DNA from: an uncultured Planctomycetota bacterium
Lineage (GTDB): Bacteria; Planctomycetota; Planctomycetia; Gemmatales; Gemmataceae
Length of the DNA stretch: 64,000 nt
Reading direction: 5' to 3'
Assembly: GCA_963849325.1 (NCBI GenBank)
Contig: CAWKHF010000010.1
Coordinates: forward strand, 448,001 to 512,000
Under the pieces are notes generated by a model, which did no database searches, was not told where the DNA came from, and was given only the letters and a program-made list of their open reading frames with translations. The stretch's first letter is position 1. Every line of letters starts with the position of its first letter. Shown one piece after another: positions 13,606-30,175 of this stretch. The translations under genes and the position numbers were made by a program.

Positions 13606-15195
13606 TTACATTTCCCGCTCTCCCGACTCGTTCGAGATCGGCTCGAACAGAAGCACGTCCAGTCCCGTGAACTGCCGGCGGCTTGTCAGTCGCATGCCGA
13701 ACCCTCCCAGGAACTCGGGGATAGCTTGCCCGTATGGCCCTTGCCAAATTGTTTCCGGAGGCGTAATGACCCACAAACGCGCCCCCCGGACGCTGGTAAC
13801 GAGTTGGTTCGCGGGTGTGTAGGAACCCAGACAGGTCCGCCGCCCTCGGTAGTACACTTCAAACACTTCGGGGTGCGACACCCAGCACAGATCCTGCTCG
13901 TGTCGGTTCTGATCGACGTACACGAAGGCGTTGCGGAAATCGCTCTTCGTCCCGACGAGGACGAGATACTTGCATGCCCGGATGGACCCTGGCACCAGAA
14001 GAACGAGGGCGAGGAGCACGGCGACCGAGGCGCGGCGGGAACCGGCTCGGTTCGCCACCGCCTCGACACCGAGGAGAGCGAGCAGCCACACACAGGGGAC
14101 GGCGAAAAACACGGTACGATCGGCCATTGGATAGCGGCCGACGAGGGCCATCAGCCAACCCAGTCCGATCGGGCCGCTGAGTAACACGGCCAACGGCGGC
14201 GATCTTCGCCAACAGCAGGCCGCGCCGAGAAGTCCCAGGATCAGCAGGGGGATGCCGAGCGAGGTCGTGCCATAGTCGCCGATGCCGATCAGACAGCGAA
14301 TCGACCAATCCAGGATCGCACGCGGAGAATGTCCGTTAGGGAACCCCCCGCACTCGACCCAGAAGTCGTGCAGGCCCAGTGAATACAGATGGCGAGCGTG
14401 AAACCACCAGAGACTGAACCCCGACAGCAGCAGCAAGCCGTTGAGGAGTATCCAGTACAGCCAAGCGACGCGGTCCCCACGTCGGCCGACATCGAGGAGA
14501 AGAGCCAGACTCACGGCACCCAGGACGAGCGCGCTGGGGAAAGAGATCCAGGGAGCGAGGCCGGCCAGCAGCAGTAGTCCGATCCGACACCAGCCACGGG
14601 ACGAATCCGGCGACGAGGGGCGAAGAAGGATTATCCCCACGAGGAGGATCGCTTCGGTCAGGAGGAAATCGCTACTGTACGGATGCACCTCGTTGGCGTG
14701 TACCATGGCGTGATGGGAGAACGTACCTAGCCCCACGGCGAGCAATGCGCCCGGCGATCCGAGGATGCGCCGAGCCAGGAAGAACATCAGTCCGAGGGCG
14801 GCGAGGGATGCCGCCGTGGCGGGCAGCCGCATCACCCATTCCGCCCCGCCCAGCGCTGCGTACAATCCGCGCAGCAGGCACAGCAACAAGGGAGCCATCA
14901 CCTGCTGTGCCCGCAGAGGGCCGAACAATTCTCGACAAGGTTTGTCGTAAATGTTCACCAGGAGATACGCTTCGTCGTACCAGTACGAGGGGCAGGCGAA
15001 GAATTGCCGCAAACGGATCGCCGTGCCGAAAAGCAGAAGGAGGACCAAGAGAAGCGGCGACCAGCGGCGCCAGGCCGCGAAGGATGACGGGGGGACATCA
15101 AGGACCGCGGACTCCGCTGCCTCCTTTGCGGTTGTCGGAACCGCCGCGAATCGCCATGCCATGAGAGAGTATCCTTTCCGGCGGCCGCGGCTCAC
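13606..15195 (-). CDS. GT-C fold membrane glycosyltransferase (PMT/GT39-like)
   Basis: YWYDEAYL after the first TM helix, MRLPA, many TM helices. Start codon uncertain. Confidence 0.75.
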   Translation of the reverse strand: MSRGRRKGYSLMAWRFAAVPTTAKEAAESAVLDVPPSSFAAWRRWSPLLLVLLLLFGTAIRLRQFFACPSYWYDEAYLLVNIYDKPCRELFGPLRAQQVMAPLLLCLLRGLYAALGGAEWVMRLPATAASLAALGLMFFLARRILGSPGALLAVGLGTFSHHAMVHANEVHPYSSDFLLTEAILLVGIILLRPSSPDSSRGWCRIGLLLLAGLAPWISFPSALVLGAVSLALLLDVGRRGDRVAWLYWILLNGLLLLSGFSLWWFHARHLYSLGLHDFWVECGGFPNGHSPRAILDWSIRCLIGIGDYGTTSLGIPLLILGLLGAACCWRRSPPLAVLLSGPIGLGWLMALVGRYPMADRTVFFAVPCVWLLALLGVEAVANRAGSRRASVAVLLALVLLVPGSIRACKYLVLVGTKSDFRNAFVYVDQNRHEQDLCWVSHPEVFEVYYRGRRTCLGSYTPANQLVTSVRGARLWVITPPETIWQGPYGQAIPEFLGGFGMRLTSRRQFTGLDVLLFEPISNESGEREM

Positions 15196-15437
15196 CAGAA
15201 GGGGCTTGGGATCGCCGTGTTGTTGGCATCGGCTAGGCGTGAGGTTGACTTGAATCCGAGTCCCTTTGGCGGAAGAATGGACGACGTTCCTTATCGATGG
15301 GGGAATTTTCCACAGGACGCGAACCTTTGGTCCGGTGCGCGTGTCTTCTTCAAGTGAAACCCAACCACCCCTCGTTTCGCGCCCTTGACGGAGGAGGAAT
15401 CCGAACGCGACCTTGCGAGATCAACGCATCTTCGCAT

Positions 15438-15543
15438 CCGTATCGAGAGTGGCGCGAGGGATTGGGCCCGATGACCGCCACGGCAAGACTGGTCCAGCCG
15501 CCAAGTTGCCAAGGCCTACCCCCCAAATGGGGGAACGATACGG
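15438..15543 (+). ncRNA. SAM-I (S-box) riboswitch aptamer
   Basis: P1 CCGTATC/GATACGG; ATCGAGAG; kink-turn P2 GAGGGA-TTGG-GCCCGATGA; P3 CGGCAA...TTGCCAA; pseudoknot TGGG/CCTA; P4 CCCCC-AAAT-GGGGG. Confidence 0.85.
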
Positions 15544-15573
15544 CTCCACGGGAGCAACCAAGGGCGGATCGGC

Positions 15574-15602
15574 AAATCCTCGCTTGGAGGGTTTTCTTCT
15601 TC
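15574..15602 (+). terminator. Candidate riboswitch expression-platform terminator
   Basis: AAATCCTC-GCTTG-GAGGGTTT followed by TCTTCTT, about 30 nt after P1. Confidence 0.5.
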
Positions 15603-15825
15603 GCCAGGCTGCCGTCTCTCTCGGCCTCGGGTCGGCGGAGGTGGACCAAGCCTCTATCCGCGAAAACTCCCTTTTGTTCCTCGTGATGCCTTGAAGCGGC
15701 GTTGCGATTCGTCCCCGCGCGACGCCTCCCATTGCAACGACCTCGCTTCTGTCCACGGAAGCCTTGGCTGACGATCTCTTTGCACCTCGCAACGCACGGG
15801 AGTCCCAGAGAAGGAGGACGGCAAC

Positions 15826-16425
15826 ATGGTGGCCCAAGTAGGATCCATTGCGGAAATGGCGGACATGCCCGAAGAGCGCGAGAGTACGATTGACCGGGCC
15901 CGGGCCGGAGACCGAACGGCCTACGGGGAGTTGGTGAGGTGGTTCCGTCCGGCCATTTACAGCGTGCTGCTGGCCTGGCTGCGCGACCCGGCCGAGGCCG
16001 ACGACGTGGCCCAGGAGGTGTTTCTGCACAGCATGCGCAAGATCGGCCAGCTGCGCGATACACGCTGCTTCGCCTCCTGGCTGCGGCAGATCGCCGTGCG
16101 ACTGGCGCTCAACCGCCTCAGTCGCCGCCGTTCCGTGAGCAACTTGACCCACCTCCGCCAGTCGTCGCTGCCCGACGGCGGCGCCGACCCCCTCGACGAG
16201 ATGGTACGGGCCGAGGAGCAGGGACAGGTCCGCGAAGGGCTGAGCCATCTGAAGCCGCTGGACCGCGCCATGCTGGAGGCGTTCTATCTCCGCAGCCGCT
16301 CCTTGCGAGAGATCAGCGAGGAATTCGACGCCCCGCTCGGCACGATCAAGCGCCGCTTGCACATCGCCCGACAGCGTCTGCGCCGGCTTCTCGAGGGGGG
16401 GCAGGACTCTTCTGCCGTCGAATAA
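15826..16425 (+). CDS. ECF-family RNA polymerase sigma factor
   Basis: GDRTAYGELV, EADDVAQEVF, FASWLRQIA (region 2); SLREISEEFDAPLGTIKRRLHIARQRLR (region 4); RBS AAGGAGG. Confidence 0.93.
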   Translation: MVAQVGSIAEMADMPEERESTIDRARAGDRTAYGELVRWFRPAIYSVLLAWLRDPAEADDVAQEVFLHSMRKIGQLRDTRCFASWLRQIAVRLALNRLSRRRSVSNLTHLRQSSLPDGGADPLDEMVRAEEQGQVREGLSHLKPLDRAMLEAFYLRSRSLREISEEFDAPLGTIKRRLHIARQRLRRLLEGGQDSSAVE

Positions 16426-16439
16426 ACGGCCTTCTACAT

Positions 16440-16477
16440 CCCGCGCGGCACCGGTGCCACGCGGGTCTGCTTTTTGT
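16440..16477 (+). terminator. Candidate intrinsic terminator after the ECF sigma gene
   Basis: cccgcgcggcaccggtgccacgcggg hairpin followed by tctgcttttt. Confidence 0.55.
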
Positions 16478-16604
16478 CCACGCTACACGGTTGCTCTTGG
16501 GCCGACGCTGTGGTCCAATGGGGCACCGAGACCGCGCCGGCGACAGGGAGTCTCCGCACTGACGGTCTCGCCAGGCCGCACGAGGTGCGAGGGAGCAGCC
16601 GACG

Positions 16605-17892
16605 ATGGGATGCGACATGCTGGTGGCCTTGTCCCAGGCGACCCAGGACGGCGGGACGCTCTTCGGTCACAACTGCAACCGGCCCGAGGGGGAAGAGGTG
16701 TCTCTGCTCCGCGTGGCGGGGCGGGCCTTCGCACCAGGCGAAAGCATCCAGGCCGGCGACGTCGTCTTGCCGCAGGTGCGGCGAACGTGGACGGTGCTCG
16801 CCAGCCGTGGCCCCGGTCAGTGGGGCTACGCGCACGGCCTCAACGAACACGGCGTCTCCATCGGCCTGACCACCATCCGTACCCGGCGGCGCGAAGCGGC
16901 CCCTGCCCTGAGAGGGCCGGACCTGGTTCGTCTGGGCCTGGAGCGGGCGACCGGGGCCCGCCAAGCCGTCGATGGGATCACGGACCTGGTCGGCCGTCAC
17001 GGCCAGGGTGTGACCGACGCCGGGCTTGATTCCGCTTTCCTCATCGCCGACAACCGCGAGGCGTTCGTCGTCGAGACGTTCGGGTCGCACTGGGCGGTAC
17101 AGCACGTCGGCGCGGTTCGCGCCGTCAGCGACGTTTGCCATCTGCGCCGGGACTGGGACCAGTTGTCGTCCGGCCTGTCCGAACTGGCGATCGCGCGGGG
17201 GTGGTGGCCGGCCGACGGCAGCAAGCTCGACTTCGCCGGGGCCGTCGCCGCCGAAGGCGGTGACAACGCCGCGTCCTTGCGGCGCTGGGGGCGGGCCACA
17301 CTGATGCTGGAGCAGTCCAACGGACAGATCAACCTGGCCATGCTGCGGCGCGTGCTGAGCGATCACTTCGAGGATGGTAGCGACGAAGCCCATCTCGCCG
17401 GGTCGTCCCTTTCCATCGCACGCGGCGGGATGAGCCTGTGCCGGCACGCGATTGCAACGTCCACGTCGCGCACGGCGGCCAGCCTCCTCACGCAAACCGG
17501 CTCGGATGCCGTGCTGCCGATCGCCTGGTACAGTTTCGGTCCGCCATGCCTATCGGTGTACTTCCCGCTCCCGCTCGTGGGCGAACTGCCAGCCGAATGG
17601 CAGTCCACCGGGGACGGCTCAAGCAAACGTCTGGGCGATTGGCTGCGGCGCCGGCCGGGTGAACCCGAGCAGTTCGTCGCGCTGCGCCGCCCTGACGGAG
17701 TTACAGGAACGCTTCGATCAGGAGACGCGCGCGTTTGTCGCCGAGGCCGCCGAACTATGCCACCGCGGCGAGAGCGAGCGGCTGCCGCGTTTGGCGGAAC
17801 TATTCATGCGGCACAACCTGGAATCCTTTGAAACTCTGTACGAGGACTTTCCGCCAGCACGCACAAGTACGGCAGCTCCCGCGCGAACCTAA
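16605..17892 (+). CDS. Peptidase C69 / secernin-like Ntn hydrolase, frameshift ~17690
   Basis: N-terminal MGCDMLVA (Cys nucleophile), LFGHNCNRP, WGYAHGLNEHGVSIG, DLVRLGLERA, FLIAD. Confidence 0.8.
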
Positions 17893-25793: not shown

Positions 25794-25878
25794 GCCGAAG
25801 TGGCGGAACTGGCAGACGCGCCAGGTTCAGGACCTGGTTCCCTTAACGGGAGTGGAGGTTCGAGTCCTCTCTTCGGCA
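25794..25878 (+). tRNA. tRNA-Leu(CAG)
   Basis: Acceptor stem GCCGAAG/CTTCGGC, anticodon arm CCAGG-TTCAGGA-CCTGG, long variable arm, GGTTCGAGTCC. CCA not fully encoded. Confidence 0.96.
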
Positions 25879-26993: not shown

Positions 26994-29878
<2,885 letters not shown>

Positions 29879-30063: not shown

Positions 30064-30175
30064 TTCCCGGTGAGCAGACCTGGATGGCCCCACCCGTTCC
30101 CATTCCGAACACGGCCGTTAAGCATCCAGGGCCGATGGTAGTCCTTCGCGGGCGAGAGTAGGGTATCGCCGGGGA
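30064..30175 (+). rRNA. rrf: 5S rRNA (short type, about 110 nt)
   Basis: CACCCGTTCCCATTCCGAACACGG, GCCGATGGTAGT, GAGAGTAGG; terminal helix CCCGGTGA/TCGCCGGG. Confidence 0.95.

Follow-up and report, generated by a model that had tools for sequence, protein, structure and literature searches.

The locus considered here lies in a 64,000-nucleotide (nt) stretch of DNA from an uncultured planctomycete of the Gemmataceae, which is referred to below, at its full length of 64 kb, as the window. It consists of an S-adenosylmethionine (SAM) aptamer of the SAM-I (S-box) family at 15437-15544 on the forward strand, with helices P1-P4, kink-turn and pseudoknot (RF00162), and downstream of it on the same strand a gene for a stand-alone sigma factor of the extracytoplasmic function (ECF) type at 15826-16425 (199 amino acids). 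The reading favoured here, with a confidence somewhat above even, is that a functional SAM-I riboswitch within a ~470-nt 5' leader controls this sigma gene in cis. Such an arrangement suggests that RNA alone is enough for the availability of methyl donors to switch an entire transcription programme.

A scan of the whole window with the covariance models of Rfam (cmscan) gave four matches above the gathering scores, among them RF00162 at 15437-15544 (+), which covers model positions 1-108 of 108 and scores 60.4 bits against a cut-off of 44.4 (E-value 1.6e-11 for the 64-kb window and 1.8e-13 for a 701-nt stretch alone). The preliminary description of this DNA had placed a complete SAM-I aptamer at 15438-15543 and named RF00162 as the means of checking it; the full-length match, well over the gathering score, bears this out, and the aptamer is confirmed as a real member of the SAM-I family. 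The core elements AGAG, GAGGGA, GGCCC, AUGA, GGCAA, GCCAA, and GAUA are matched in the cmscan alignment, as is every strongly conserved position of the model, and SAM binding is thus predicted from sequence. Helices P1-P4 are visible in the same alignment, and all four are recovered in the minimum-energy fold of 15420-15620. At the sequence level, the GA/GA motifs of the P2 kink-turn align with GAGGGA and AUGA of the model, and the P2 loop UGGG is complementary to the J3/4 junction (CCUA in the window, CCCA in relatives), corresponding to the pseudoknot. In a five-way alignment of the leaders of the window genome (G000), two related genomes (G006 and G010), and two metagenome loci (L067 and L100), the 33 aptamer pairs are standard in 164 of 165 cells, the remaining cell being an alignment gap in P4. 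One P4 pair reads C-G in the window where the other four sequences have U-A, other exchanges are of the types C-G/U-G and G-U/G-C, and every variable position either falls in a loop or junction or leaves pairing intact.

The product of the downstream gene matches Pfam Sigma70_r2 (residues 36-102) and Sigma70_r4 (residues 139-186) only, with no match to r1 or r3, and reaches 79.1 bits with the sigma70-ECF model TIGR02937, for which the cut-off is 42.9; its closest solved chain is Bacillus subtilis SigW (E 2.4e-17). A ribosome-binding site, AAGGAGG, is located at 15811-15817, 8 nt before the ATG, and its context, CAGAGAAGGAG, is conserved in all relatives. The 3' side of the gene carries a terminator-like element at 16440-16475, composed of a hairpin (16440-16465, -20.8 kcal/mol) and TTTTT (16471-16475), in agreement with the preliminary description, which had noted an ECF sigma gene with a terminator of its own. 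The upstream neighbour in the window is a divergent PMT_2 glycosyltransferase gene (13606-15195, -), and the downstream neighbour, behind the terminator-like hairpin, is an open reading frame (ORF) weakly resembling C69/C45 Ntn-hydrolases (16605-17831, +). Neither is an anti-sigma, methionine (Met), cysteine (Cys), or SAM gene by Pfam and TIGR scans of the ORFs, in agreement with the earlier statement that no anti-sigma or met/cys gene is adjacent, and no co-transcribed anti-sigma factor was seen at the locus itself in four genomes, although one may be encoded elsewhere. Genes on the upstream side vary between loci (the window has PMT_2 and two ORFs, G006 an M56 peptidase, and G010 a kinase-PilZ gene in divergent orientation), as do those downstream (the C69-like ORF in the window and G009, convergent selA-selB in G006, G010, L066, and L067), and the sigma gene is therefore the sole constant neighbour of the aptamer, the only constant gene on its strand and the only conserved gene downstream.

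The selA and selB genes, for selenocysteine synthase and its elongation factor, are found at L064 4830-8147 in G006, at L065 25-3102 in G010, and in L066 and L067. They are not at the locus in the window or in G009, and no functional link to the riboswitch is evident.

Inheritance of the aptamer with the sigma gene

The sigma protein was searched, and RF00162 scanned, in 61 genomes, namely G000 (8.16 Mb in 14 contigs) and 60 relatives. A sigma match at E <= 1e-20 is present in 48 of the 61, and a close orthologue (76-83% identity) in three relatives only (G009, G006, and G010), all of the same genus, in which the window-type gene occurs in 4 of 11 genomes; the matches of ~50% identity represent a paralog, which G000 also possesses (C5:113538-114056). 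RF00162 itself occurs in one or two copies in 51 of the 61 genomes, and in G006 and G010 one copy immediately precedes the orthologous sigma gene in the same orientation, as cmscan confirmed (2 of 11 loci). Three of 20 scanned metagenome loci also have it, comprising the distinct carriers L067 and L100 and L068, a duplicate of G010. These aptamers score 59.5 (G006), 59.7 (G010), 58.6 (L067), and 59.9 bits (L100) and are placed 300-440 nt before the orthologous ATG. When the distinct sigma relatives that are at least 60% identical and have at least 500 nt of upstream DNA are tallied (n = 8; L066 and L070 were left out because their upstream DNA is too short, and L150 is G009 again), the aptamer is carried by five of eight, which answers the question raised at the outset whether orthologous planctomycete ECF genes keep it. 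It is absent within 1500-2000 nt upstream of the sigma gene in G009, in the 868 nt of upstream DNA of L069 (67% identical), and upstream of the gene in L152 (61% identical).

In a maximum-likelihood tree of 22 sigma proteins, from which L100 (65 residues only) and the duplicates L068, L150, and L151 were omitted, the carriers form one crown clade (support 93/98); all are uncultured genomes of a single genus-level clade of soil planctomycetes. G009 is nested within this crown clade as the sister of the window (87/93), and L069/L070, then L152, are successive outgroups. The simplest history would be that the aptamer was gained once, in the ancestor of the crown clade, and lost once, in G009, whose lack of an aptamer is read as secondary because of this nested position.

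The aptamer has a mean pairwise identity of 0.92 (range 0.90-0.95) in the five-way alignment, compared with 0.30 in the far 5' flank and 0.26-0.53 in the unconserved leader (26% in the distal leader). Codon-position identities of the sigma gene are 0.82-0.89 at first, 0.87-0.91 at second, and 0.55-0.63 at third positions, which indicates purifying selection on the protein. Since the aptamer is 92% identical and third positions only 55-63%, the aptamer is selected and a decaying orphan is excluded; at the level of sequence comparison, these data demonstrate strong selection on the aptamer and its inheritance together with the sigma gene.

Other SAM-I elements were encountered in the same genomes. 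G000 has a second one in an ordinary context (84.3 bits; C5:1097784-1097896, -, equivalent to L001 1501-1613), before a pyridoxal phosphate (PLP)-dependent enzyme of the PALP family with an N-terminus that reads threonine-synthase-like; the Pfam match of this enzyme is split over the overlapping frames L001 105-2027 and 128-988, suggesting a frameshift or assembly error, and the platform of the element consists of a small hairpin followed by a C/U-rich tract with no clean U run. Sub-threshold RF00162 matches (36-39 bits) occur in G002, G007, and G023 and are unrelated to the window locus by blastn. Two of them, G002:C3:3848256-3848363 (L230 1457-1564; 39.4 bits) and G007:C4:856600-856704 (L231 3001-3105, -; 36.2 bits), have similar S-box-like sequences and may represent a divergent SAM-I-like variant. 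The match in G002 precedes an ORF with a twin-arginine-like signal by eye (MSFLTRRTFL), and the only Pfam family obtained for the ORFs scanned around the sub-threshold matches is Metallophos, for an ORF that lies further downstream in G002. Rfam matches elsewhere in the window are a tRNA (25794-25878), 23S rRNA (26995-29878), and 5S rRNA (30066-30174), with no match to 16S rRNA within the 64 kb; the large and small subunit rRNA genes may thus be unlinked here, as has been reported for planctomycetes.

Promoter-like motifs and the leader

An ECF-type promoter-like motif, GAACCTTT-N14-GTCT (candidate -35/-10), is located at 15321-15347 (+). Within it, CGCGAACCTTT and GTCTT (window 15318-15348) are invariant in all five aptamer-bearing leaders against a 5' flank that is 30% identical, and the motif lies ~90-115 nt upstream of the aptamer in all five carriers. 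The form AAC, ~16-18 nt, CGT/GTC is that of sigma-E/sigma-W-type ECF consensus promoters. The version (T-rich)-GAACCTTT-N12/13-CGTCT also occurs 580-1235 nt upstream of the paralogous sigma gene, at 9 of 26 paralog-type genome loci, at the locus of G000 itself (C5:112740), and at 5 further metagenome loci, some of which encode sigma factors only 43-46% identical. GAACCTTT-N12-14-(C)GTCT is thus kept before both paralogous sigma clades, and CGAACCTTT-N-GTCT has three occurrences in the 8.16-Mb genome, two of them before the two paralogous sigma genes. Because the family keeps the motif before the widespread paralogous sigma as well, it is probably the auto- or cross-activated promoter of this sigma family, from which transcription is predicted to start near 15353-15356, with the aptamer ~85 nt into the transcript. 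The motif was not found in G009 or L152; in L069 a variant form is present, and the ~480-nt leader behind it is a different one.

The preliminary description had instead proposed TTGACG (15385-15390) as the -35 element. This hexamer is present, but it is conserved in none of the four aligned relatives and has no -10 partner, so the motif at 15321-15347 is the better promoter candidate; a promoter scan of 15100-16700 found no sigma-70-type promoter. A fuzzy scan of the genome for the motif gave 83 matches, of which four were inspected (three from among the best-scoring and one ranked lower). These lie in or beside unrelated coding regions (an EF-hand protein, ribosomal protein L1, a RecQ-like helicase, and ORFs without family), and no Met- or SAM-related targets were found among the four.

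Between this motif and the aptamer lies a purine block, GGAGGAGGAA (15390-15399), which resembles a ribosome-binding site and in which GAGGAGG is invariant in five of five leaders; it is complementary to a pyrimidine tract in or after the platform hairpin described below and pairs there in the full-leader fold of G010. The aptamer is followed by a small hairpin, GCUCC-ACG-GGAGC, and then AACCAAGGGC, a candidate switching sequence (15543-15565); both GAGCAACCAAGGGC and AACCAAGGGC are invariant in five of five leaders, and in folds of the relatives AAGGG can base-pair with the 5' arm or the loop of the hairpin that comes next. This next hairpin, the platform hairpin (15574-15594), precedes a pyrimidine tract and the invariant TTCGCCAGG (15595-15609), so that 15574-15609 constitutes a candidate terminator or switching helix. 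It has a local fold of -20.8 kcal/mol (z -2.99) and, together with TCTTCTTC, is the one match of a terminator scan of 15100-16700. Just before the same tract, all four relatives have a G+C-rich hairpin of 5-7 bp; over the five lineages its stem measures 5-8 bp, and no two lineages share its sequence.

The untranslated leader extends from the aptamer to the start codon (15545-15825), of which ~220 nt (15604-15825) lie between the hairpin and the ATG. It includes a conserved block, CCTNTATCCGCGAAA-CTCCCTTGTGTTCCTCGTGA (15650-15690), with a mean identity of 0.67 against 0.26-0.53 in the flanking leader. No small ORF is conserved in the five leaders, and their indels are not multiples of three. 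The C/G ratio is 1.18 in the window leader (1.94 in the best 78-nt stretch) and 1.25-1.27 in the other four (1.68-2.06), compared with 0.99 in the whole 64-kb window. Since the leaders are C-rich and G-poor in five of five cases and the G000 genome encodes Rho, Rho-dependent termination appears as plausible as intrinsic termination in this leader.

The aptamer plus platform (172-176 nt) was folded for the five sequences with the 5' strand of P1 blocked or unconstrained. The best P1-blocked structure lies 0-5 kcal/mol above the unconstrained minimum, with no gap in G010 and L100, 0.3 in L067, and ~4-5 kcal/mol in G000 and G006, and in the minima of G010 and L100 the 5' half of the aptamer pairs with the downstream tract. 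A gap of 0-5 kcal/mol is estimated to be within reach of ligand-binding energy, and the modelled values would fit a switch tilted by its ligand, without amounting to proof of one. No clear canonical antiterminator formed from the 3' strand of P1 was found in the platform. Translational coupling was considered as well, but partition-function accessibility of the ribosome-binding site with the aptamer enforced or P1 blocked (0.23/0.37, 0.34/0.39, and 0.01/0.01) shows no consistent change in the three of five leaders modelled.

A second conserved block, TGAAAA-N16-CGTAT, is found ~75-100 nt before the ATG in G006, G009, L067, and L100 and in degenerate form in G010. It was lost from the window through a ~130-nt deletion (window 15701-15806 compared with the leaders of relatives). 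G009, which has neither the aptamer nor the distal motif nor the PMT_2 gene, retains this proximal block as nearly all of its ~90-140 nt of intergenic DNA, and for this reason the block is probably a promoter in G009.

The paralogous ECF sigma gene likewise has a long leader (616-1236 nt) behind the same promoter-like motif, at G000:C5:112740-113480 (L062 4241-5015) and, as orthologous leaders, in L007, L009-L013, and L017. It contains a conserved stretch of ~270 nt with a core, GATCGCCGGAGGTCTCCnATGGCCGT, that is kept across genera. RNAalifold predicts 83 pairs in this stretch, 27 of them with compensatory changes, compared with 7.8 +/- 2.1 in shuffled alignments (0 of 500) and 4-11 in slid controls, the structure being derived from, and counted on, the same 8-sequence alignment. 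A protein gene was considered, as there is similarity at the ORF level, but codon-position differences are flat (0.249, 0.284, and 0.296), and the stretch is therefore taken as non-coding. It has no Rfam match at E up to 5, whether to a relic aptamer or to another known RNA, and is a candidate for an undescribed leader RNA.

Proposed control of the sigma gene and its alternatives

In the favoured reading, transcription would start at the ECF-type promoter at 15321-15347, auto- or cross-activated, and the transcript would take in first the aptamer (15437-15544), then a platform (15543-15609) whose purine and pyrimidine helices exclude one another, and then an untranslated leader rich in C before reaching the sigma ORF. 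With SAM bound, the aptamer would be locked and transcription would end early, either near 15600, where the hairpin and its U/C tract lie, or through the action of Rho on the exposed C-rich leader. At low SAM, read-through would allow the sigma factor to be made and its own synthesis to be amplified. We infer the promoter role, the site and mode of termination, the feedback loop, and the OFF direction, the last of which is carried over from other SAM-I switches. The preliminary description had envisaged a riboswitch-to-sigma cascade in which SAM depletion induces a whole regulon. This agrees with an aptamer that is selected, a sigma gene that is the only conserved gene downstream, and the lack of a co-transcribed anti-sigma factor, whereas no regulon is defined. 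An extended version, in which methyl-donor status triggers an all-or-none transcription programme through a self-amplifying, SAM-gated ECF loop without an anti-sigma factor, is regarded as possible but doubtful; in this version the loop may be one case of a family habit of control by long structured 5' leaders, which would include the ~270-nt RNA of the paralog as a possible new ligand-sensing element.

Several observations weigh against control by the riboswitch. The five available aptamers are nearly identical and provide a single compensatory pair, so that the covariation evidence is thin, and the distance of 282 nt from aptamer to ATG is long for a classical S-box leader. For 15300-16480, a search for sequencing runs returned two DNA runs, with word shares of 0.05-0.09, and no RNA run. 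The candidate terminator noted earlier is persuasive in the window only, where hairpin and tract pass the scan, and even there the one match compares with 1.2 +/- 1.0 in shuffled sequences and is not significant alone; the U tracts of the relatives are poor (5-6 U in 10), and local folds often draw their tract into a longer stem instead of leaving it as a free tail. The proximal block in the relatives may act as an additional promoter and so circumvent the switch, and G009, which keeps the sigma gene with neither aptamer nor distal motif, indicates that expression of the gene does not require the switch. In the window leader, weak ECF-like hexamer pairs are seen by eye at 15659-15688 and 15741-15768, and a weak internal promoter may therefore lie within 15650-15770.

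These last points bear on whether control is only partial, with the switch gating transcripts from the distal promoter, the main promoter lying between aptamer and ORF, and SAM modulating just the amplification loop. This is considered improbable. The proximal block of the relatives, its presence in G009, and the similarity of the 15650-15690 block to the -35 of the distal motif all speak for it, but the proximal block is deleted in the window, the scan of 15100-16700 found no sigma-70-type promoter, the 15650-15690 block lacks the invariant GTCT -10, and the promoter role of these blocks is judged from their look alone. A separate promoter within 15600-15826, which the preliminary description had named as a point that would tell against its proposal, may accordingly exist: the relatives carry the promoter-like proximal block, the aptamer-less G009 among them, although this block is missing from the window. 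Since the proximal block is deleted in the window, the gene has no conserved route to expression there other than the one through the riboswitch, and in the relatives the presence of the block suggests two inputs to the sigma gene. The complementary losses, with the window keeping the riboswitch route and G009 the proximal block, form a natural experiment on layered control.

The read-out could also differ from termination, in the form of a translational or an ON switch in which purine blocks (GGAGGAGG at 15390, GAGGGA of the aptamer, and the ribosome-binding site) compete for pyrimidine blocks (the tract at 15595-15603 and CUCCC/UUCCUC at 15669-15683). The purine and pyrimidine blocks are invariant in five of five leaders, and in the full-leader fold of G010 the ribosome-binding site is base-paired (probability unpaired 0.01) to the pyrimidine tract beyond the hairpin, and GGAGGAGG to the hairpin region; with the blocks 130-340 nt away from a ribosome-binding site whose accessibility did not change consistently in the leaders modelled, such a read-out is nevertheless quite unlikely, and we know of no characterised SAM-I switch that is not an OFF switch, which counts against an ON form. 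It is very unlikely that promoter, aptamer, and hairpin form a separate small RNA, for example a trans-acting one, that merely lies beside the sigma gene: the hairpin after the aptamer, the long gap to the ORF, and the trans-acting SAM-I RNA reported for Desulfovibrio vulgaris (in the source cited below) would suit this, but the unit occurs only before the sigma gene, on the same strand, in five lineages, the one other conserved promoter-like block is gone from the window, and the distal promoter motif is the sigma family's own. Finally, the aptamer could be a functionless orphan left by gene loss, given that no Met, Cys, or SAM gene is nearby and one sister lineage has lost the aptamer; its identity of 92% against 55-63% at synonymous sites and the absence of any helix-breaking substitution make this highly implausible.

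Comparison with known systems

At this locus, an aptamer class that is already known occupies a regulatory position that is new. To our knowledge, riboswitches almost always control enzymes or transporters of the pathway of their own ligand. The SAM-I (S-box) leaders of Firmicutes, such as those of yitJ and metI in B. subtilis, share with the present leader the aptamer family, its position in the 5' leader, and the hairpin with a U/C-rich tract after it. Unlike them, the leader described here precedes an ECF sigma gene rather than a Met, Cys, or SAM enzyme or transporter, has no clear antiterminator formed by the 3' strand of P1, extends for 282 nt past the aptamer, and has a weak U tract in the relatives.

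Control of a sigma gene by its leader has a parallel in rpoS of Escherichia coli, which has a long structured 5' untranslated region where RNA pairing decides both translation and premature Rho-dependent termination. It resembles the present case in that a sigma gene is governed by such a region, and differs in that trans-acting small RNAs and Hfq take the place of a metabolite aptamer and the sigma factor belongs to group 2 rather than to the ECF type. In Clostridioides difficile, sigD reportedly lies in the flgB operon and drives toxin genes. With this reported position of sigD, the flgB operon offers a partial precedent for the cascade, of which the preliminary description had known no characterised example; a metabolite riboswitch in cis before an ECF gene was not found in the literature searches made here. 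The flgB operon has a cyclic di-GMP riboswitch in its 496-nt leader (PMC7438776). There, too, a riboswitch precedes a transcription unit with a sigma gene in it, giving a cascade, but the signal sensed is a second messenger and not a metabolite, and the sigma gene is of the FliA type and deep in a large structural operon, whereas here a stand-alone ECF gene comes immediately after the leader.

Trans-acting SAM-I RNAs are similar in that a SAM-I element reaches a regulator and not an enzyme; unlike the present element, which acts in cis in the regulator's own leader, they base-pair in trans and stay on Met/SAM genes. SreA of Listeria, a trans-acting SAM-I RNA, is said to target PrfA. The SAM-I RNA of D. 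vulgaris acts in trans on SahR, according to a preprint (bioRxiv 10.1101/803072).

Among ECF sigma factors, group ECF282 has no anti-sigma factor and is controlled at the level of transcription, and ECF54 and ECF58 are without a known regulator, according to the main text of their classification (Casas-Pastor et al., 2021, PMC7826278). These groups resemble the present sigma factor as stand-alone ECF genes without a co-transcribed anti-sigma factor, on which the input probably acts by controlling synthesis. The main text of that classification does not contain the word "riboswitch" (0 occurrences), and "sigma" is likewise absent (0 occurrences) from the riboswitch survey of McCown et al. and from Sun et al. 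(2013). The inputs to ECF sigma factors described in the sources consulted are anti-sigma factors, C-terminal extensions, phosphorylation, and upstream transcription factors. If the favoured reading is true, one small molecule would reprogramme many promoters through RNA alone, which raises the question of what a planctomycete must switch on at low SAM; "riboswitch" would then join these ECF input mechanisms, and the locus would offer a natural template for ligand-gated orthogonal sigma circuits.

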